Of a stretch of 64,000 bases of DNA, positions 5,512-21,182 are shown in pieces. The translations under genes and the position numbers were made by a program. The stretch is from an uncultured bacterium. GTDB lineage: Bacteria > Eisenbacteria > RBG-16-71-46. The notes under the pieces are model-generated. The model made no database searches. It was not told the origin of the DNA and saw only the letters and a list, made by a program, of their open reading frames with translations. The stretch's first letter is position 1. Every line of letters starts with the position of its first letter. The stretch is from assembly GCA_964589945.1 (NCBI GenBank), contig CAZPVG010000001.1:22515-86514 (forward strand). Direction: 5' to 3'.

Positions 5512-6544
5512 AGGGCTTCGAGGCCGCGGCTTCCGTCGAGTCCCGGGGGGCCCGGCCCGGGCGGGCGCGCCGGGCCTTCACGTCCGGCCGAGCTTCCCAC
5601 GCCCCCACCATCCGGCCCATCGCGGGCTCGTCACGGACGTCCGGCCCGAGCATGACCACCTCGCTGTCCCGCGACTCGATCCTGCCCGAGGCGTCGAGGT
5701 CCAGCTTCGTGACCCCGGCGAACTGCCCCTCCTCGCCGCCGAAAACGACCGTGGTGTGGTCCAGCAGCCGACTGCGCTGCATGAGCGGCACGTTGCGCCC
5801 CGCGATGGCCACGTCGATGCCCGGCACCGCGAGCACGAGGCTCTCGGTGTCCATCTTGCCGAGCGAGGAGAGCAGCACGATCACCTGCGCGCCGCGCTTG
5901 CGCATCTCCGTCACCGCGCTGCGGGCGGCCTCGGTCGGGTCGCTCACCTCGAGCGTGTCGGCCGCGGAGCCGAGCTGCGCCCGGGGCGAGATCAGGCCGA
6001 AGACGCCGACCTTGTACGGGCCCACCGGGCGGACGAAGAAGGGCTGGGCGAGCGTCCGGTGCGGCGCGCGGCGCCAGAGATTCGCGCACACGAGCGGCAG
6101 CGGGTACTCGTTCATCGTCGCCTCGAGGAACCCGAGGCCGAACAGGAACTCCTGGTCGCTCAGGCCCACCGCGTCGAGGCGCATCGCGTGCATGGCCTTG
6201 GTCACGAACGGCGCGTCGTCGCGCTCCGACGGGCCCGCGGGGAAGAAGCCGCCCGTGTCCACGACGAGCAGGTTCGGGTAGATCTTCCGCAGGCTGTCGT
6301 CGAACGCCGCGCGGCGGGCGAGGCCGCCCTTGGGGATGTGGCAGCCGCACGGGACCGTCTTGGCGTGCACGTCGCTCGTCGAGACGATGACGAGCGGGCT
6401 CGCCCCGGCGCCGGCGGCGGGCCCCGCGGCCCGGGCGGGCGCGGGCGCCGCGAGCGCGATCGCCGCGGCGGCCGCGAGCACGGCGGGAACGGTCCGGCGC
6501 CACGCGGCAGCCGGGGACATCGGGGCCAGCCTGGGGAACGGCAT
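5510..6544 (-). CDS. secreted calcineurin-like metallophosphoesterase / 5'-nucleotidase-family protein
   Basis: Start ATG at 6544 has AAGGAG 7 nt upstream. Signal peptide MPFPRLAPMSPAAAWRRTVPAVLAAAAAIALAAPAPARA. IVSTSDVHAKT...KGGLARRAAF...NLLVVDTGGFF matches the N-terminal motifs of 5'-nucleotidase/UshA-type phosphoesterases. Confidence 0.6.
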   Translation of the reverse strand: MPFPRLAPMSPAAAWRRTVPAVLAAAAAIALAAPAPARAAGPAAGAGASPLVIVSTSDVHAKTVPCGCHIPKGGLARRAAFDDSLRKIYPNLLVVDTGGFFPAGPSERDDAPFVTKAMHAMRLDAVGLSDQEFLFGLGFLEATMNEYPLPLVCANLWRRAPHRTLAQPFFVRPVGPYKVGVFGLISPRAQLGSAADTLEVSDPTEAARSAVTEMRKRGAQVIVLLSSLGKMDTESLVLAVPGIDVAIAGRNVPLMQRSRLLDHTTVVFGGEEGQFAGVTKLDLDASGRIESRDSEVVMLGPDVRDEPAMGRMVGAWEARPDVKARRARPGRAPRDSTEAAASKP

Positions 6545-6695
6545 GGAAGCGCTCCTTCGTTTCGCGGGCACGGCGGGTGGAGGGGATACCGACCGGCAAT
6601 TCTCCCGTGGCGCGCGGCGACCCTTCAAGGCCGGAACGCCCCGGGAACGTCAGGGGCTCGCAAGAACTGCGTGGGGCCCGGGCCGGAACGCGACG

Positions 6696-6725
6696 CACCC
6701 CGCGGGCGGTGCCGCCCGCGGGGTG
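6696..6725 (-). terminator. GC-rich stem-loop downstream of response-regulator gene
   Basis: CACCCCGCGGGCGG-tg-CCGCCCGCGGGGTG near-perfect inverted repeat, about 25 nt past the stop of the minus-strand HK-RR operon. Confidence 0.35.
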
Positions 6726-6750
6726 CCGATACGACTCGACGCGGGGCGCC

Positions 6751-7446
6751 TCAGGGCTCGACGAACTTGTAGCCGACCTTGTGCACCGCGACGATGAACG
6801 GCTTCTCGAAGCCCTCGCCGAGCTTGCTGCGCAGGTTCGAGACGTGCGTGTCCACCGTGCGCGTGGTGACGCCGAGCTCCTCGTCCACGCCCCAGATCTC
6901 CTCGAGCAGCTCCTCGCGGCTCACGGTGCGGCCGCGGTGCTCGATGAGGTACTTGAGCAGCTCGAACTCCTTGAACGAGAGCGCGACCTGCTTGGTGGCC
7001 TTGTACACCTCGCGCGGCTCGAATCGCACCTCGACGTCGCCGAAGGTGTACGTGGTCGTGGCGGGCGTGCCCGTGTTCATCGGGCCGCGCGCCACCAGGC
7101 GCTTCACCCGCGCCATGAGCTCCTTGATGCTGAACGGCTTCGTCACGTAGTCGTCCGCGCCCAGGTCGAAGCCCTTGAGCACGTCCGCCTCGAAGTTGCG
7201 CGCGGTCATCACGAGCACCGGAATGTCGCGATGACGCTGCCGCAGCTCCTTGAGCACGGTGAAGCCGTCCTTCTCGGGAAGCATGATGTCGAGCAGCACG
7301 GCATCGGGCTTCTGCTTGAGGGCGAGGCGAAGGCCTTCCTGCCCGTTCTTGGCCGTGAGGACGTCGTAGCCGTCGTAACGGAAGTTGTGAGCCAGGCCGT
7401 CGAGCAGCCCCTCTTCGTCCTCGACGATGAGGATCTTCTTCTGCAT
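6751..7446 (-). CDS. OmpR-family two-component response regulator
   Basis: MQKKILIVEDEEGLLDGL...LLDIMLPEKDGF...DDYVTKPFSIKEL receiver domain plus winged-helix trans_reg_C (REELLEEIWG...VDTHVSNLRSKLG...VGYKF). GAAGGG Shine-Dalgarno before ATG at 7446. Confidence 0.9.
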   Translation of the reverse strand: MQKKILIVEDEEGLLDGLAHNFRYDGYDVLTAKNGQEGLRLALKQKPDAVLLDIMLPEKDGFTVLKELRQRHRDIPVLVMTARNFEADVLKGFDLGADDYVTKPFSIKELMARVKRLVARGPMNTGTPATTTYTFGDVEVRFEPREVYKATKQVALSFKEFELLKYLIEHRGRTVSREELLEEIWGVDEELGVTTRTVDTHVSNLRSKLGEGFEKPFIVAVHKVGYKFVEP

Positions 7447-13874: not shown

Positions 13875-16487
13875 TCAGTGCGGTGACGTGTCGGCCGGCG
13901 CGGGCGCGGGCGGCGGCGCGCTCTTCTTCCCGAGCCCGCCGAAGAAGTTCTGCAGCGCCCCGCCGGCCGCCTTGCGCAGGCTGTCCTTCGCCGCCTCGAC
14001 CTGCTGCCGGGGCGTGGCGCCCCCGGCGCTGTCGGCGGCGAGGCCGAGCCGCTGCTGCAGCGCGCTCGCAGCGGCCTGCTTCGCCTCCGCCTCGAGCTTC
14101 GCCTTCTGCTCGGCGATCGCCTGCGAGGCCCGGCCGGCCAGGCGGTCGCGCATCGCCTGCGTGTTCCACGCGACGCGCGGCGCTTTCGCCGTGCCGCCCA
14201 CGTGCAGGTCGATGAGCGTGCGCCCCTGGTCGTCGGCCAGCGCGCCGGCCGCGAGCGCCGACTTCGCATTCAGCGCTTCGGTGACCTGCTGCGGCAGGGT
14301 GATGCTGACCGCGTAGTCGAGCGCGCCGTCGAAGCCGACCGCGCCGGACATCTTCCAGTCGCCGCTCGGCCCCGAGAGCGTCGCCTCGTCGGTGATGATG
14401 CGGCCGTTCTCGATCCGCATCGGCAGCTTGAAGTCCTTGAACTTCACCTCCCTGAGCTGCGGCACCTTCACGAGGTCGGCGATCGCCTGCAGGGTCGGCC
14501 CCGGCCCCAGCTGGCCGTCCGAGAGCGCGGCGAGCCCGACGAGCGTGAGCGTGCGCTTGAGGTCCGCGGGCTGGTCGCCCGCGCCCGAGAACGTGAGGTC
14601 GGTGCTGAGCGTGCCGCGCAGCAGGTTCTTCGCCGGCGTCCACACCGACAGGAGCGAGTCCGCGTTCACGTCGGTGACCTTCGTCCTGATCTCGTAGGCC
14701 GGCTTCGCCGTGTCGCGCAGGTCGAACTTCGCGCTGCCGGCGATGTCGCCACCGTAGCCCTGCAGCGAGAAGTTCTGCGCGTCGAGCGCCGCGGGCGCGA
14801 GCGCGACCGTGGCGCTCACGTTCTTCACGTCGAGCGCGCCCTGCCGGAGATGCGTGATGCTCACCTTGCCGCCGCCCTTCGCGTTCGGCAGGAACGGGGC
14901 GCCGGGCGTGGTGGGCAGCAGCTCGGCGAGGTCGAGGTTCGGCGAGCGGAAATCGAACGTGACGCCCGCGGGCGGCACCGAGTCCGGCTTCGCCATGAGC
15001 GCGAGCGGCCGCGTGACCGTGGCGTCGAGCGTGTAGGAGGACGCGCCCGCCTTCGCGGTGAGGCCCTTCACCTCGGCGCGCTGCGTCGAGAGCAGCACGG
15101 TGCCGTTCACGTCCTCGATCTTCTTCGGCAGGTCCTTCGCCTCGACGCTCACGTTCTTCAGCTGCGCGCGGCCGTCGAGCGCGATCGAGCCGGGATCCTT
15201 CGCGCGGCCGCTGCCGCGCACGTCGAGGTCGGCGCGGCCCCCGAGCTTCGTGCCCTGCTCGGCGACGAGCGGCGCCACCGCGGCGAGGTCCACGTTGCCC
15301 TTCACGGAGAAGTCCACGAGCGGATCCGCGAAGCGGCGCGCGAGCAGCCGCGCGCTCACCGGCTGGCCCGACACCGTGCAGGCGAGGTCGGGGATGCTCA
15401 CCGTGTCGGGCGCGAAGCGCGCACGGAACGACAGGCCGTCCACGCCCACCGGCGCCCCCGCGTACCTGAACGAGGCGTCCTGGACGCCCAGCCAGCCCGT
15501 CACCGCGGGAATCGCCGGCGGCGCGCCGGGCGCGGGCGCCGCGCCGCGGGCGGCGAGGTCGAACGCCATCGAGCCGCGACCCGAGAGGCCCTGCACGGCC
15601 TTCGCGTCGGCGACCGAGACCCACCCGAGCACCTGGCCGAAGTCCACGCCGTCGCCCTTCGCGCGCAGGTCGAAGCGCGCGTGCGGGCCCGGGTCGTCCA
15701 CGACGCCGCTCACGGCGAGCTGGGCCTTGCCGAGTTCGAGCGCGAGCCTGCCGAGCGCGAGCCGGTTCTGCTTCGCGTCGTACTTGCCGTCGTGGTCGAG
15801 CTTGAAGACGAGCTTCGAGAGGCCGTTGTCGAGGTCGCTCATGCGCGCCGCCGAGAGCGGCCCGAACGCGAGGCCGGTGATCTCGGTACGGCCCCTCGTG
15901 GCGATCCGCTGCCCGCCGCCCTCGGCCGAGAGCGAGGTCGTCGTCGCGAGCTCGAACGTCGTGCGCCGCCGGGCCTTGAGGTCGTCCACGAGGACGCGGC
16001 CGCCGCGGATCGCGAACGTGCGCACTTCGAGGTCCATCGCGGGCGGCGCCTTGGCGCCCGGCTGCGGCGGCGCGCCGAGGTTGTCCAGGTTCGTACTGCC
16101 GTCGGCGTTCAGCACCAGGTGCAGCGCCGGGTCCACGATCGCGAGCCGCGTCACGCGCACCCTGCGCCCGAGCAGCGCGAACACGTCGAGGTCGAGGTCC
16201 ACGGACTTCGCCGAGAAGGCGGCGCCGTTGGCGAACCCGCCCGGCTCGGCGAGCTCGAGCTTGCGCACCGAGAGCCGCACCGGAGGCCAGAGTCCTACGG
16301 ACGCGCCCTCGAAGCGCGCCTCGCGGCGGAGCGCGGTGTGGAGCTGGGTCTCGACGAGGGACTTGACGCGCGCCGGCGGCAGCAGGATCGCGAGCGCGAT
16401 CCAGGCGCCCACGACGATCGCCACGACGACGATGGCGGCGAGGACGAGCGGGCGCGTGAGCGCGGACTTCTTCGCGGGTGCGTTCAT
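13875..16487 (-). CDS. AsmA-family outer-membrane assembly protein
   Basis: N-terminal signal-anchor (MNAPAKKSALTRPLVLAAIVVVAIVVGAWIALAILL), long beta-rich repeats and an AsmA_2-like C-terminal region (FKDFKLPMRIENGRIITDEATLSGPSGDWKMSGAVGFDGALDYAVSITLP). The alternative overlapping minus frame 13834..16533 is Arg-rich and rejected. Confidence 0.75.
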   Translation of the reverse strand: MNAPAKKSALTRPLVLAAIVVVAIVVGAWIALAILLPPARVKSLVETQLHTALRREARFEGASVGLWPPVRLSVRKLELAEPGGFANGAAFSAKSVDLDLDVFALLGRRVRVTRLAIVDPALHLVLNADGSTNLDNLGAPPQPGAKAPPAMDLEVRTFAIRGGRVLVDDLKARRRTTFELATTTSLSAEGGGQRIATRGRTEITGLAFGPLSAARMSDLDNGLSKLVFKLDHDGKYDAKQNRLALGRLALELGKAQLAVSGVVDDPGPHARFDLRAKGDGVDFGQVLGWVSVADAKAVQGLSGRGSMAFDLAARGAAPAPGAPPAIPAVTGWLGVQDASFRYAGAPVGVDGLSFRARFAPDTVSIPDLACTVSGQPVSARLLARRFADPLVDFSVKGNVDLAAVAPLVAEQGTKLGGRADLDVRGSGRAKDPGSIALDGRAQLKNVSVEAKDLPKKIEDVNGTVLLSTQRAEVKGLTAKAGASSYTLDATVTRPLALMAKPDSVPPAGVTFDFRSPNLDLAELLPTTPGAPFLPNAKGGGKVSITHLRQGALDVKNVSATVALAPAALDAQNFSLQGYGGDIAGSAKFDLRDTAKPAYEIRTKVTDVNADSLLSVWTPAKNLLRGTLSTDLTFSGAGDQPADLKRTLTLVGLAALSDGQLGPGPTLQAIADLVKVPQLREVKFKDFKLPMRIENGRIITDEATLSGPSGDWKMSGAVGFDGALDYAVSITLPQQVTEALNAKSALAAGALADDQGRTLIDLHVGGTAKAPRVAWNTQAMRDRLAGRASQAIAEQKAKLEAEAKQAAASALQQRLGLAADSAGGATPRQQVEAAKDSLRKAAGGALQNFFGGLGKKSAPPPAPAPADTSPH

Positions 16488-16650
16488 GGGCGGGACTATA
16501 GCGCGGGCGCGCGCGGCGGCCAGCGGGCGTCACCCCGCGGGGCGCGCCGCCCGGAGCCGGCCCGGGAAGCGAACGCGGGCGGAACGGTACGCGCGGAAAC
16601 GCCCGCGACGGAATGGACCCGCCACGGACCCCGCGCTACCCTGCGGCGCC

Positions 16651-17307
16651 ATGGCGCCACTCTCCGAAAGCGTCTTCGCCGAGCTCGCCGAGCACCGGCT
16701 CGTCGCGGTCATCCGCGCCGCGCACCCGGACTGGGCGTTCGGGGCCGCGCAGGCCGTGATCCGCGGCGGCATCCGACTCGTGGAGGTGACCTACTCCGTG
16801 CCGGACGCGCCGTCGGTCATGCACCGGCTCCGCGGAGCGAATGCCGTGATCGGCGCGGGCACCGTGCTCACGCCCGACGAGGCGCGCGCGGCGCTCGAGG
16901 CCGGCGCCCAGTTCATCATCGCCCCGAACATGTCCCCCGCGATCGCGGCGATCGCCCGCGAGGCCGGCGTGCTCTACTGCCCGGGCGCCTACACGACCAC
17001 CGAGATCGTGGCCGCGCGCGACCACGGCGCGCACGTCGTGAAGGTCTATCCGGTCGGCGTCGCCGGCGGGCCCGACTACATCAAGGTCATCCGCGACCCG
17101 CTGCCGAACATCCCGATGCTCGCCGCGGGCGGCACGAACCTCGGCAACGTCGGGCCGTTCCTCGACGCGGGCTGCGTCGGCGTGGGGCTCGGCGGCTCGC
17201 TCGCCGACCCGGCGCTCGCCGCCGCCGGCCGCTTCGACGAGATCGAAGCCCGCGCGCGCGCCTTCACCGACCTCATCGAGAAGCGCAGGGCCGGGGCCAG
17301 CGCGTGA
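16651..17307 (+). CDS. eda: 2-dehydro-3-deoxyphosphogluconate / 4-hydroxy-2-oxoglutarate aldolase
   Basis: MAPLSESVFAELAEHRLVAVIRA...VEVTYSVPDAPSVM...AVIGAGTVLTPDEARAALEAGAQFIIAPN...VKVYPV...GGTNLGNVGPFLDAGCVGVGLGGSL matches the KDPG aldolase TIM-barrel signature. Confidence 0.8.
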   Translation: MAPLSESVFAELAEHRLVAVIRAAHPDWAFGAAQAVIRGGIRLVEVTYSVPDAPSVMHRLRGANAVIGAGTVLTPDEARAALEAGAQFIIAPNMSPAIAAIAREAGVLYCPGAYTTTEIVAARDHGAHVVKVYPVGVAGGPDYIKVIRDPLPNIPMLAAGGTNLGNVGPFLDAGCVGVGLGGSLADPALAAAGRFDEIEARARAFTDLIEKRRAGASA

Positions 17308-18536
17308 AGGGCCGGCTCGCCGCCGCGCTCTCGCTGCTCGTGCTGCTCGCCCCCGTCGCGCGCGCGAGCGTGGAGGAATTCTCGACGTTCGACCTCGCCC
17401 CGCTGGAGCAGGACGACGAGAACTTCCTCGACCACTGGCTGACCCGCGTGCCGCTCCGGTGGGACGACGAGTACCGGGCGGCGACCGGCGCCTTCCGGAC
17501 GAGCCAGGGCTGCTACACCTCCGGCGAGTGGTTCATGAAGAACGACTTCAAGGTGCGCGCCGCGCTCGGCCGGAAGACCTACCTCGACCTCGTCTACACG
17601 CGCATGGACGACGACGTGGCGACCTGGGAGTGGATGCGGTTCGACTTCCGCTTCGCCACCGACCACACCGGCACGTTCGGTTTCCGCTTCCAGCCCTCGC
17701 ACGACAAGAGCCAGCACGACTTCGCGCTGCTCTGGGACGGGGGCGTGCCGAACGGCCCGCTCGAGGTGAACGCCACGTTCACGCTCGAGGACGCGTTCAA
17801 CTCGCTCTGGGAGTTCCGGCAGGCGCGCGTCGGCGAGAGCTACTCGCCCTACCGCGCGCACCCCGTCGAGCCCGCGCTGCGGATCGCCTCGCACGGCGCG
17901 CACCACCGCTTCGAGCTGAACGGCAAGTGGCTCACGCCCCTGCGCCAGGACCATCTCCAGGACCCCGACACGACGCTGAACGGCACCCACACGCTGTGGG
18001 GCTCGAAGGGCTCGATGCTCGCGTCGGTGGACGTCGGCCGCTGGACGCTCGAGGGCCGCTTCGAGGACGAGCAGGTGCGCTCCTCCCACACCCGGCCGTC
18101 CCTGGCGGGCGACGACCGCCGTCTCCAGCGGCGGTGGCAGGCCGAGGCGGCGCTCCAGCGCTCGCTCGGCGGCACCTGGCGCTCCGAGCTGCGGTGGGCC
18201 TACCAGGACCGCATGGAGGACTGGCGTCCGCCACCCACCCTTGCCAACATGCGGGCGCTCGACCGCGGGCTCGCCTTCGAGATCTCGGGACAGCCGCGCG
18301 AGGACTGGCACCTCCGCGTGGGGTACCTCCACGACCGCATCCTGATCGCGGAACACGGCACGGTCCCGGCGTTCACCTGGGGCACCCGCAAGGAGTCGCG
18401 TGCCTACATCGGTCTCGAGGCGTTGTTCGGGCGCGTGCGCGTGCAGGGCATCGAGGGCATCGAGCTGGACCAGGAGCCCTACGACGTCACCTGGCATCAC
18501 GACAAGGGATTCCTGCAGCTGCAGACCACCTTCTAG
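17304..18536 (+). CDS. exported beta-rich protein, probable outer-membrane beta-barrel (hypothetical)
   Basis: GTG at 17304 overlaps the eda stop (GTGA). Signal peptide VKGRLAAALSLLVLLAPVARA. Aromatic-rich alternating pattern and a C-terminal ...FLQLQTTF ending in Phe, typical of OMP barrels. It is the 3' part of a 1444-aa artefactual ORF. Confidence 0.55.
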   Translation: MKGRLAAALSLLVLLAPVARASVEEFSTFDLAPLEQDDENFLDHWLTRVPLRWDDEYRAATGAFRTSQGCYTSGEWFMKNDFKVRAALGRKTYLDLVYTRMDDDVATWEWMRFDFRFATDHTGTFGFRFQPSHDKSQHDFALLWDGGVPNGPLEVNATFTLEDAFNSLWEFRQARVGESYSPYRAHPVEPALRIASHGAHHRFELNGKWLTPLRQDHLQDPDTTLNGTHTLWGSKGSMLASVDVGRWTLEGRFEDEQVRSSHTRPSLAGDDRRLQRRWQAEAALQRSLGGTWRSELRWAYQDRMEDWRPPPTLANMRALDRGLAFEISGQPREDWHLRVGYLHDRILIAEHGTVPAFTWGTRKESRAYIGLEALFGRVRVQGIEGIELDQEPYDVTWHHDKGFLQLQTTF

Positions 18537-18551
18537 TCCCGGAGGGCCGTC

Positions 18552-18950
18552 ATGAAGGGATTCATCGAGTTCCTGACCAAGACCAACGCTCTCGCGCTGG
18601 CCATCGCCGTGATCATCGGCGGTGCGATCGGCAAGGTTGTCAGCTCGCTCGCCGGCGACCTGCTCATGCCGCTCATCAGCCTGGTGATGCCCGCCGGCAA
18701 CTGGCGCGAGGCGAAGATCGCCCTCACGCACGCGCCGGACGGCTCGGTGGGCAAGGCCCTCGGCATCGGCGCGTTCAGCGGCGCCGTCGTGGACTTCCTG
18801 ATCATCGCCGCGGTCGTCTACTTCATCACCAGGGTGGCGATGAAGCCCGCCCCCGCGCCCCCGGCGCCGCCGACCAAGCAGTGCCCCGAGTGCCTCGAGA
18901 CGATCCCCGCCGCCGCGAAGAAGTGCCGCGCCTGCGGCAGCACCGTCTAG
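18552..18950 (+). CDS. mscL: large-conductance mechanosensitive channel MscL with C-terminal 4-Cys zinc-ribbon-like tail
   Basis: GGAGGG Shine-Dalgarno 5 nt before ATG. MKGFIEFLTKTNALALAIAVIIGGAIGKVVSSLAGDLLMPLI...DFLIIAAVVYFI matches MscL TM1/TM2. The C-terminus ends ...KQCPECLETIPAAAKKCRACGSTV (CxxC-N11-CxxC). Confidence 0.8.
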   Translation: MKGFIEFLTKTNALALAIAVIIGGAIGKVVSSLAGDLLMPLISLVMPAGNWREAKIALTHAPDGSVGKALGIGAFSGAVVDFLIIAAVVYFITRVAMKPAPAPPAPPTKQCPECLETIPAAAKKCRACGSTV

Positions 18951-18969
18951 GCGCCTTCCTTCGCGCGAC

Positions 18970-19000
18970 GGGCCGGCGGCGGACGCTCCGCCGCCGGCCC
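18970..19000 (+). terminator. GC-rich hairpin after mscL
   Basis: GGGCCGGCGGCG-gacgct-CGCCGCCGGCCC: a 12-bp perfect stem about 20 nt after the mscL stop, followed by GGCGTGTTCC. Confidence 0.4.
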
Positions 19001-19211
19001 GGCGTGTTCCGGCTCGCGACGGAGGAAGCGCCATCGCCTCCACGGGTGAGCCGGGGCCGGCGGGCGGGGACAGGACTGGTGCGGGTGAGCCGGGGCGGGG
19101 CGGGAGGCCGATCGACCGCCGGGGCCCCGGCGCTCTTCGCAGGAATCACCCCTCGACCTTAGAGTGCGCGGGAACGGCCCCTTGCACCCTACCGATCAGG
19201 AGGATTCCGCG

Positions 19212-21182
19212 ATGCGTCGCGTGATGTTCGTCGTTTTCGCGCTCGCCCTCGCCGCGCCGGCGGCCCGCGCCGCGAAGGAGTCGCGGCCCACTTCGGCCGA
19301 CGTCGTGGAGCTGCGCGGCGCCTCGTCGCTCGCGCTCTCGCCCGACGGCACCCGCGTCGCGTACGTTCTCACCACCACCACGCACGATTCGACCGCGAAG
19401 CCGAAGGACGGCGACACGAAGGCCGGCTGGAAGGTCGAGCGCCAGCTCTGGCTCGCCGACGTCGCGGCGAAGACGACCCGCCAGCTCACGTGGAACGAGG
19501 CCGGGGCCGGTGCGCCGTGCTGGTCGCCCGACGGGCGCACGCTCGCCTTCCTGCGCCGCACCGGCGGCAAGACCGGGCTGCAGCTGCTGGCGCTGGCCGG
19601 CGGCGAGGCGATGCCGCTCCCGACCGGCGACCTCGAGCCGCGGGATCCCGCGTTCTCTCCCGACGGGAAGTCCATCGCGTTCCTCGCCGACGCGCCGCTC
19701 TCCGCCGCCGAGAAGAAGGCGCGCTGGGAACGCGGCGGCGCGGAGCACTGGGGACACGAGTTCCCCGAGACGAAGCTGTGGATCGTGCCCGTCGCCGGCG
19801 GCGAGCCGCGGCAGGTGGACGCCGGCCCCGACGTCGTCGCGTTCGCGTGGTCGCCGGACGGCAGGCGGTTCGCGGTCGAGACCTGCGACAGCGGCGATCC
19901 CTACGTCGTCTCGAGCCTGACGCGCATCGCGATCGTGGACGCCGACGGCAAGGCGCCCGCGCGCGTCGTGGACCGGCCCGCGGGCTCGTTCGGCGCGCCG
20001 CTCTGGTCGCCCGACGGCCGGTGGGTCGTCGTCGCCGGCCTGAACGGCGGGCTCTCGAACCTGAACGCGCTCTACCTGTGCGATCCCGCGACCGGGAAGG
20101 TTCGCGACCTCGCGCCGGACCCCGACCGCACGTTCGGGAGCTGCGTCTGGGGCGCTGATTCGAAGTCGGTCGTCGCCGTCGTGCTCGCGCGGACCGCCAC
20201 GAAGCTCGAGCGCTTCCCGCTCGAAGGCGCGCCCTCGGAGCTCCCGTTCGACCGCGTGATCACCGGCGGCCTCGCGCCCGACGGCGCGTCGCGGCGGTTC
20301 GCGTTCGAGTCGTCCACGGACCGCACGCCGTACGAGGTGACCGTGTACGACCCCGCCGCCGGCGCGACCACGGTGGTCACCGACCTCAATCCCGAGGTCG
20401 CCTCGTGGAAGACCGGCGCGACGCAGGTCGCGCGCTGGAAGGACGCGGAAGGCGTCGAGATCGAGGGCGTGCTCACGCTCGCGCCCGGCGCGAAGGCCGG
20501 CTCGCCCGCACCGCTCATCGTGTTGCCGCACGGCGGGCCGGACGGCGTCACGAACACCGGCTTCTCGTGGCTCACGCAGTACATGGCCTCGCGCGGCTAC
20601 TCCGTGCTGCGCCCGAACTACCGGGGCTCGCTGGCCTACGGCTTCGCGTTCTACGCGGCGAACCGGAACCGCTTCGGCGAGGTCGAGCAGGCCGACGTCG
20701 AGAGCGGCGTGGACCAGCTGATCCGCGACGGCCTCGCGGACCCGAAGAAGCTCTACTTCGGCGGCTGGTCGTGGGGCGGCTACATCACCACCTGGATCGT
20801 CACGCACGTGCACCGGTACCGCGCCGCCGTGGCCGGGGCGGCCGTGTCGGACGTGTTCCATTCGTACTCGCTCAGCGACATCAACCACGGCGTCGCCGCG
20901 CAGTGGGAGTTCGAGGGCGATCCCTGGCGGCAGACGGAGCACTTCGACCGCGTGAACCCGATCCGCTACGTGACGAACGTGACCACGCCGCTGCTGCTCC
21001 TGCACGGCGAGGCCGACACGCGGGTGCCGTTCGCCGAGACCGTGCAGTTCTACCGGGCGCTCTCGGATCTCGGGAAGGAGGTCGAGTTCTGGGCATACCC
21101 GCGCGAGAACCACGGCTTCCACGAGCCGGCCCACCGCGTGGATTACATCCGGCGCTGGGTGGACTGGTACGACGCCCACTAG
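19212..21182 (+). CDS. S9-family serine peptidase (prolyl oligopeptidase / acylaminoacyl-peptidase type) with N-terminal beta-propeller
   Basis: AGGAGG 8 nt before ATG. Signal peptide MRRVMFVVFALALAAPAARA. Repeated WSPDG...propeller blades. C-terminal alpha/beta-hydrolase with the GGWSWGGY nucleophile elbow, plus later D and H (HGEADTRVP...ENHGF). Confidence 0.85.
   Translation: MRRVMFVVFALALAAPAARAAKESRPTSADVVELRGASSLALSPDGTRVAYVLTTTTHDSTAKPKDGDTKAGWKVERQLWLADVAAKTTRQLTWNEAGAGAPCWSPDGRTLAFLRRTGGKTGLQLLALAGGEAMPLPTGDLEPRDPAFSPDGKSIAFLADAPLSAAEKKARWERGGAEHWGHEFPETKLWIVPVAGGEPRQVDAGPDVVAFAWSPDGRRFAVETCDSGDPYVVSSLTRIAIVDADGKAPARVVDRPAGSFGAPLWSPDGRWVVVAGLNGGLSNLNALYLCDPATGKVRDLAPDPDRTFGSCVWGADSKSVVAVVLARTATKLERFPLEGAPSELPFDRVITGGLAPDGASRRFAFESSTDRTPYEVTVYDPAAGATTVVTDLNPEVASWKTGATQVARWKDAEGVEIEGVLTLAPGAKAGSPAPLIVLPHGGPDGVTNTGFSWLTQYMASRGYSVLRPNYRGSLAYGFAFYAANRNRFGEVEQADVESGVDQLIRDGLADPKKLYFGGWSWGGYITTWIVTHVHRYRAAVAGAAVSDVFHSYSLSDINHGVAAQWEFEGDPWRQTEHFDRVNPIRYVTNVTTPLLLLHGEADTRVPFAETVQFYRALSDLGKEVEFWAYPRENHGFHEPAHRVDYIRRWVDWYDAH

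Follow-up and report, generated by a model that had tools for sequence, protein, structure and literature searches.

What does a mechanosensitive channel of the MscL family gain, if anything, from a cysteine-rich tail in the place where a cytoplasmic helix is usually found? This question is raised by a gene found in a 64,000-nucleotide stretch of DNA (referred to here as the window) from an uncultured bacterium assigned to the Eisenbacteria (GenBank assembly GCA_964589945.1, contig CAZPVG010000001.1). The predicted product of this gene is a 132-residue protein comprising an MscL core (residues 1-96), a linker rich in Pro and Ala (residues 97-110) and a Cys4 ribbon (residues 111-132). The answer considered to be probable is that the protein works as an ordinary, tension-gated MscL, with a structural zinc knob occupying the place of the helical bundle. 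When the sequence was re-read, both the open reading frame (ORF) and the tail exactly matched those reported in a first-pass annotation of the same DNA, save for the spacing of the cysteines. The two CxxC knuckles, described as being eleven residues apart, are separated by ten residues (LETIPAAAKK), corresponding to the motif CxxC-N10-CxxC.

The channel core and the origin of the tail

Assignment of the core to the MscL family relies on sequence profiles, alignment and structural modeling. The Pfam MscL model (PF01741) matches residues 1-119 (E 3.9e-24; 85.8 bits, relative to a cut-off of 27.4), while the best matches among solved structures are the E. coli MscL entries (E 1e-13). In the alignment with E. 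coli MscL, residues 2-110 of the window protein are paired with residues 5-118 of the E. coli protein. As this alignment ends at residue 110, it covers the PAxAPxPTK linker shared by the two proteins and stops where the C-terminal helix of E. coli MscL starts. Within the aligned region, F7, F10, N15, L19, V23, G26 and K31 of the E. coli protein correspond to F4, F7, N12, L16, V20, G23 and K28, respectively, of the window protein, with E. coli L19 and V23 (aligned with L16 and V20) presumably being hydrophobic gate positions. At the position of E. coli G22, the window protein contains Ala, whereas most of its relatives contain Gly. No second MscL and no further ribbon-bearing ORF were detected in the window.

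A model of the window protein was generated with AlphaFold2 (AF2), using as input an alignment of 91 ribbon-bearing proteins, and showed a mean predicted local distance difference test score (pLDDT) of 86. According to DSSP, the modeled protein would contain an N-terminal amphipathic helix (residues 2-10), a first transmembrane segment (TM1; residues 13-45), a periplasmic beta-hairpin (residues 56-70), a second transmembrane segment (TM2; residues 72-96), the linker and a tail that includes short strands. Comparison of the modeled core with PDB entries using Foldseek retrieved the MscL proteins of M. acetivorans (4y7k; E 3.6e-4) and M. tuberculosis (2oar; E 3.7e-3), both with a probability of 1.00. 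No C-terminal helix of the type that forms the E. coli five-helix bundle was seen in the window protein, where the alignment with the E. coli sequence ends at the linker and the tail is modeled as a beta ribbon. Such a helix is not strictly defining for MscL, since the M. acetivorans protein has none (PMC6167328). The earlier description of the gene product as an MscL core in which the C-terminal helix has been swapped for a zinc-ribbon-like module containing four cysteines is, accordingly, borne out by the Pfam match, the E. coli alignment and the AF2 model.

There is next to no chance that the tail is an artefact, be it the outcome of a frameshift, of read-through or of a chance pattern of cysteines. 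All 32 codons specifying residues 101-132 end in G or C, corresponding to a third-position GC content (GC3) of 1.0, as compared to a GC3 of 0.96 for residues 1-100, in a window with a GC content of 73%. The other two reading frames of the tail region do not encode an MscL-type helix, the identical protein is present on two independent assemblies and the motif is borne by hundreds of orthologues. Together, these observations rule out an artefactual origin, including the frameshift of which the first-pass annotation had warned.

Fold, conservation and distribution of the ribbon

The UPF0547 zinc ribbon (PF10571) matches residues 109-129 of the window protein with 27.9 bits, below the cut-off of 29, while the DZR and Zn_Ribbon_1 models score lower. 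Precomputed annotations assign PF10571 to several close relatives and PF13248 to one, such that the combination of MscL and UPF0547 is already listed for some of these proteins. In an alignment of 91 ribbon-bearing relatives sharing 32-81% identity, C111, C114, A122, C125 and C128 are invariant in the tail, with G73 being the sole invariant residue of the channel core. The cysteine quartet, the conservation of which had been seen as decisive for the first-pass proposal, is thus retained in 91 of 91 sequences, and the C-terminal CxxC-N10-CxxC motif is found in 119 of the 120 closest homologues (65-100% identity). The consensus of the 91 tails reads [TS]-[KR]-x-C-P-x-C-x3-[IV]-P-x2-A-x-[RK]-C-x2-C-[TG]-S. 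Ahead of the first Cys, Thr is found at position -3 in 64 of the 91 sequences and Lys or Arg at position -2 in 89, with the basic residues at positions -2 and +13 being 98% conserved.

In the AF2 model, the tail is predicted with a pLDDT of 95-97. When the tail was considered using Foldseek, it was matched to the zinc ribbon of E. coli RadD (7R7J), with a root-mean-square deviation of 0.7 Å over 26 residues, and to the Nup153/RanBP2 and Trabid NZF zinc fingers and archaeal L40e, with deviations of 0.8-1.3 Å, the superposed stretches being about 25 residues long. A profile built from 50 tails retrieved residues 432-451 of RadD and a RanBP2 zinc finger, both at E 0.006, followed by L40e. As modeled, the tail is a member of the Cys4 zinc-ribbon fold class, and it presumably binds zinc. 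Those conserved positions not occupied by cysteine, namely, Pro after the first Cys, Ile or Val at +7, Ala at +11 and Lys or Arg at +13, are partly common to the RadD, L40e and RanBP2 ribbons, with the Ala at +11 and the basic residue at +13 being found in all three. Because these positions recur in unrelated ribbons, they are best read as fold constraints, while the variability of the other ribbon positions argues against there being one conserved partner. The ribbons of RadD, L40e and RanBP2 are themselves taken here to be structural zinc sites.

The first-pass annotation had considered a metal-binding tail on MscL to be an uncommon architecture, a view not upheld by database surveys. When 1.84 billion cluster representatives (50% identity) were searched exhaustively with HMMER, the ribbon motif was present in 106 of the 150 best matches, with most of the remainder resembling fragmentary or frameshifted gene calls. 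A pattern scan covering 185,579 species, each represented by a single genome, with the closer alignment set (A2) serving as query, yielded 511 loci with a relative. Examination of the best 80 of these loci revealed a complete ribbon in 76, while the remaining four comprised two truncations at contig ends, one extraction failure and one change of Cys to Arg. These 80 loci belong to Ca. Eisenbacteria, Acidobacteriota (Thermoanaerobaculia, Vicinamibacterales and Bryobacterales), Verrucomicrobiota, Melainabacteria and cyanobacteria, Methylomirabilota, Omnitrophota and metagenome-assembled genomes (MAGs) of Bacteroidota. More distant ribbon-bearing clusters were found in MAGs of Ignavibacteriales and Bacteroidota, where the proteins are named MscL, and in Deltaproteobacteria and Polyangia, with Myxococcota-type MAGs also being among the sources of the architecture. 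The ribbon-tailed protein is, as such, the standard form of MscL in whole lineages, being encoded by at least several hundred species genomes from many phyla.

Databases label the variant only as 'MscL' or 'MscL family protein', with the ribbon going unremarked; in the NCBI naming, the latter term is used for close relatives of the window protein and the former for the more distant ribbon-bearing proteins. Within the literature searched, no paper was found that describes or tests a ribbon-tailed MscL, with a preprint remarking in passing that an MscL model sits in the zinc beta-ribbon clan of Pfam. While MscL is a very well-known channel, its ribbon-tailed variant, widespread and conserved, is apparently unstudied.

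Ribbon and helix as alternative tails

Proteins with similar cores and different tails allow the ribbon and the helix to be compared directly. The cores of helix-tailed P0187 and ribbon-tailed P0223 are 63% identical. Ribbon-tailed P0178 shares 68% identity with E. coli MscL over 118 residues, in an alignment that ends at the shared ...APT[KR]E; past this junction, E. coli MscL continues into its helix and P0178 into CPEC.... In none of the ribbon-bearing proteins gathered was the helix motif found alongside the ribbon. The distance between the DF motif of TM2 and the first Cys is most often 30 residues and mostly falls between 29 and 36 residues, while the E. coli helix begins some 35 residues after the same DF motif, as counted from the E. 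coli sequence. With near-identical cores, mutual exclusivity and tethers of like length, the two tails behave as alternative modules at one junction. That the ribbon swaps freely with the helix on nearly identical cores points to a structural equivalent and not to a new regulatory input. The helical C-terminal domain of MscL is dispensable for gating and its role has long been debated, with oligomeric state or stability, a pre-filter and the tuning of gating having been considered, and with results varying between homologues (PMC6167328).

According to the mechanism proposed, the gene product would be a working emergency solute-release valve of the MscL family, situated in the inner membrane and presumably gated by tension, and would belong to a large and old subfamily in which a Cys4 ribbon has taken the place of the C-terminal cytoplasmic helix. 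Each subunit would carry one independently folded and probably Zn-bound knob of 22 residues, held on a Pro/Ala linker similar in length to that of E. coli MscL. Assuming by homology that the channel is a pentamer, five such knobs would lie under the cytoplasmic mouth of the pore. There, the ribbon would most likely assume the role of the helical tail, capping the C-termini with a compact folded element on the cytoplasmic side and keeping them organised, with the two tails being presumed to be functionally equivalent. The ribbon may, in addition, affect the stability of the channel, its gating threshold or its sieving, while an added metal or redox input is less likely.

Such input had been put forward in the first-pass annotation, where the tail was suggested to make gating or oligomerisation dependent on metal or redox state. 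In a sensor of this kind, oxidation of the thiols, or the loss or gain of zinc, would unfold the knob and shift the gating threshold or the stability of the pentamer, thereby coupling solute release to oxidative or metal stress. The invariance of the four cysteines is consistent with this possibility, as is the position of the ribbon, which is predicted from the E. coli alignment and the AF2 model to be cytoplasmic, tethered near the gate-proximal end of TM2 and present in five copies per channel. Moreover, Cys-zinc centres act as redox switches in Hsp33 and RsrA, with the motifs of such switches being HxxxCxxC in ZAS anti-sigma factors and CxCx27-32CxxC in Hsp33. By inspection, however, the tail KQCPECLETIPAAAKKCRACGSTV contains neither the ZAS nor the Hsp33 motif, and both its sequence and its fold match the presumably structural RadD, L40e and RanBP2 ribbons. 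Furthermore, a helix devoid of cysteines is interchangeable with the ribbon on cores that are 63-68% identical, and no redox or metal genes are conserved beside the gene in the 80 loci. Nothing found here specifically favours coupling of this kind, and a sensor is accordingly deemed unlikely.

Further insight into where the ribbon can reside came from longer proteins. With four cluster representatives of 436-444 residues serving as the starting point, at least 84 proteins of the same extended layout were found (P0147, P0153, P0168, P0214 and P0403-P0486; loci L083, positions 6001-7335, and L084, positions 543-1877). These are 90%-identity clusters that share 41-68% identity, with some being found on contigs of 118-655 kb. 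In these fusions of approximately 440 residues, MscL and the Cys4 ribbon are followed by 2-3 residues, a signal-peptide-like hydrophobic segment ending in AxA directly before Q, and a DUF481 (YdiY-like) outer-membrane beta-barrel. The ribbon is kept in 84 of the 84 fusions. The few fusions for which an organism is named come from Deltaproteobacteria or Polyangia MAGs, and one fusion gene was confirmed on two independent assemblies. Downstream of AxA, the fusions can be aligned with free-standing DUF481 proteins at the mature N-termini of the latter, pointing to a preprotein from which signal peptidase would release a channel for the inner membrane and a barrel for the outer membrane. Judging from sequence, then, the fusion looks like a channel::signal peptide::barrel preprotein. 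A literature search found no paper mentioning both DUF481 and MscL.

The fusions show that a position directly at the membrane face is open to the ribbon and bring into consideration the main alternative to a structural tail, namely, docking or membrane anchoring. Here, the ribbon would bind a cytoplasmic protein, an anionic lipid surface via its basic residues or a partner in the envelope, and so would localise the channel or connect it, for instance, to outer-membrane barrels. Of the closest structural relatives of the ribbon, RanBP2/Nup153 and NZF had their structures determined in complex with Ran or ubiquitin, while L40e lies in the ribosome. In addition to the near-complete conservation of the basic residues at -2 and +13 and to the placement of the ribbon directly ahead of a membrane segment in every fusion, there are two links to outer-membrane barrels, these being the DUF481 fusion itself and a porin-like barrel gene 15 nt upstream of mscL in the window. 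By contrast, ribbon positions beyond those that define the fold are variable, the same basic residues occur in unrelated ribbons and, beyond the closest clade, no neighbouring gene is conserved across the 80 loci. DUF481 is likewise absent from these loci, with a hidden Markov model of the DUF481 portion finding no match in them or in the window, and a free-standing DUF481 relative adjoins a gene for an FTR1 permease and not for MscL. Docking or anchoring is, on balance, held to be unlikely.

The possibility that the barrel encoded in the window is a homologue of the fused DUF481 barrel was rejected, as BLASTP revealed no similarity between the two. MscL was also sought beside the free-standing DUF481 relative at one place examined (P0499; JGI 3300056388). 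There, the DUF481 barrel gene is located 13 nt downstream of the FTR1 iron-permease gene. DUF481 barrels may, therefore, have partners among various transporters of the inner membrane, of which MscL is not the sole one.

In a broader and improbable scenario, the ribbon would act at the membrane face as a connection between the inner-membrane valve and the envelope. As such, it could position or regulate MscL within a coordinated two-membrane route of solute release, or could render gating responsive to redox conditions or zinc. The presence of the ribbon before a signal-peptide-like segment in 84 fusions, the barrel gene upstream of mscL and the near-invariant basic residues all fit this scenario. 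As a separate matter, signal peptidase may process the fusions as natural polyproteins.

Returning to the preferred reading of a normal MscL with a structural knob, a number of points weigh against it. The TM1 signature of the closest relatives has diverged, reading TNALALA instead of GNVVDLAV, with the position of E. coli D18 being occupied by Ala in the window protein. Moreover, the NCBIfam MscL equivalog models match the window protein with scores that all fall below the cut-off (TIGR00220: 64.3 vs 71; NF001843: 72.6 vs 142). From its sequence, some functional divergence of the subclade is possible. In the fusions, a ribbon found 2-3 residues from the membrane segment must sit at the membrane face and not in an axial bundle, such that its role may not be the one played by the helix bundle. 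A regulatory site would likewise be compatible with ligands that are absolutely conserved. Finally, the neighbour-joining tree of the core, in which helix-tailed MscL proteins are interspersed among ribbon-tailed ones, was built from 95 columns and is without support values, and the pairwise sequence identities are the firmer evidence for the interchange of helix and ribbon.

Taken to its conclusion, the divergence of TM1 and the equivalog scores would describe an MscL-like paralogue that no longer serves as an osmotic release valve and in which the ribbon marks a different function of the subclade. This is considered very unlikely, given the retention of the gate-aligned residues, the N-terminal helix, K28 and the overall fold, the existence of other ribbon-bearing members with a fully canonical core that shares as much as 68% identity with E. 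coli MscL, and the lack of another MscL in the window.

The presence of ribbon and helix at the same junction on cores of up to 68% identity amounts to a natural swap experiment, apparently repeated many times. The matched pairs provided by nature (P0178 and E. coli MscL; P0187 and P0223) could be used to probe what the cytoplasmic end of MscL contributes. MscL is in use as an engineered nanovalve, and the ribbon would offer a metal-dependent and chemically addressable handle on the channel.

Genomic surroundings and relation to known systems

The positions of the gene, of the parts of its product and of neighbouring features are listed in Table 1. The mscL gene is apparently the last gene of an operon, in the order eda, barrel and mscL. 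The 410-residue barrel protein contains a signal peptide, ends in ...TTF and has no Pfam match; its model is confident and all-beta (pLDDT 90; predicted template modeling score 0.86). Only 190 homologues were found, all labeled 'hypothetical', with those for which an organism is named all coming from Ca. Eisenbacteria. When all of the ORFs in the 80 loci were clustered, the upstream eda-barrel arrangement was seen in 15-16 loci, all of the closest clade, and no neighbouring gene was conserved family-wide. The second-largest ORF cluster was discarded as a spurious antisense ORF.

Table 1. Features in and around the mscL-type gene of the window (nucleotide positions in the window).
Feature	Position	Strand	Basis and remarks
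KDPG/KHG aldolase gene (eda)	16651..17307	+	Gene call; Pfam Aldolase PF01081, E 5e-33; 4-nt overlap with start of barrel gene
Gene for 410-residue secreted outer-membrane beta-barrel	17304..18536	+	Ends 15 nt before mscL ATG; family specific to Ca. Eisenbacteria
Shine-Dalgarno-like GGAGG	18541..18545	+	6 nt before ATG; read from sequence
mscL-type gene	18552..18950	+	132 codons plus stop, ATG start; channel core, linker and zinc ribbon
Channel core, residues 2-96	18555..18839	+	DSSP on AF2 model and alignment with E. coli MscL
Pro/Ala-rich linker MKPAPAPPAPPTKQ, residues 97-110	18840..18881	+	Homologous to E. coli linker EEPAAAPAPTKE
C-terminal Cys4 zinc ribbon CPECLETIPAAAKKCRACGSTV, residues 111-132	18882..18947	+	CxxC-N10-CxxC; profile, conservation, AF2/Foldseek
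GC-rich hairpin	18963..19007	+	Just past mscL stop; perfect inner stem of 15 bp, outer stem of 5 bp
Gene for PD40 beta-propeller and S9 prolyl-oligopeptidase-family peptidase	19164..21182	+	Peptidase_S9, E 6e-51; downstream of hairpin

The hairpin that follows mscL is likely the end of the transcript or a stabiliser thereof, with a folding energy of -50.1 kcal/mol (z -4.3) that was equalled by none of 200 shuffled sequences. A scan for consensus promoters and terminators around the operon found nothing, with the hairpin having been missed because it has no T-run, and an Rfam scan of the window returned no family at gathering score. As for the peptidase gene beyond the hairpin, tblastn picked up a similar PD40/S9 gene in no more than two (L007 and L038) of the 80 loci, in neither case directly after mscL. 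It was also noted that the window, with its high GC content, contains very long spurious ORFs on both strands (14202-18536 on the forward strand and others between 17000 and 20500). These include an ORF of 1444 residues that shares its reading frame with the barrel gene, as well as one of 655 residues that spans mscL in antisense orientation. In this window, the length of an ORF is by itself no evidence of a gene.

Considered next to canonical MscL (E. coli; M. tuberculosis 2OAR; PF01741/TC 1.A.22), the window protein matches the amphipathic helix, TM1, the periplasmic loop, TM2 and the Pro/Ala linker ending in TK, although its TM1 signature is slightly diverged and it misses the NCBIfam equivalog cut-offs. 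Where the canonical protein continues into a C-terminal amphipathic helix that forms a five-helix cytoplasmic bundle, the window protein presents the Cys4 ribbon at the same junction. The best Foldseek match of the model, M. acetivorans MscL (4Y7K/4Y7J), lacks the entire C-terminal domain, such that the helical bundle does not define MscL (PMC6167328); unlike that protein, the window protein contains a conserved folded replacement.

The ribbon itself shares its CxxC-N10-CxxC spacing with RadD (7R7J), RanBP2/Nup153, NZF and archaeal L40e, as well as the Ala three residues ahead of the third Cys and the basic residue immediately before that Cys; in Pfam, small Cys4 ribbons of this kind are represented by UPF0547, zinc_ribbon_2 and DZR. 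Those ribbons, however, belong to proteins that are soluble or ribosomal and have Ran, ubiquitin or RNA as binding partners, whereas the ribbon of the window protein would be tethered at the cytoplasmic end of an ion channel. A similar layout, in which a tiny Cys-rich C-terminal knob is held on a flexible linker of an inner-membrane protein, is seen in SecA, the C-terminal tail of which comprises a flexible linker and a metal-binding domain of some 20 residues with the motif CxCxSGx8C[H/C]. As the motifs differ and no sequence relationship exists between the two tails, the likeness to SecA is one of analogy only.

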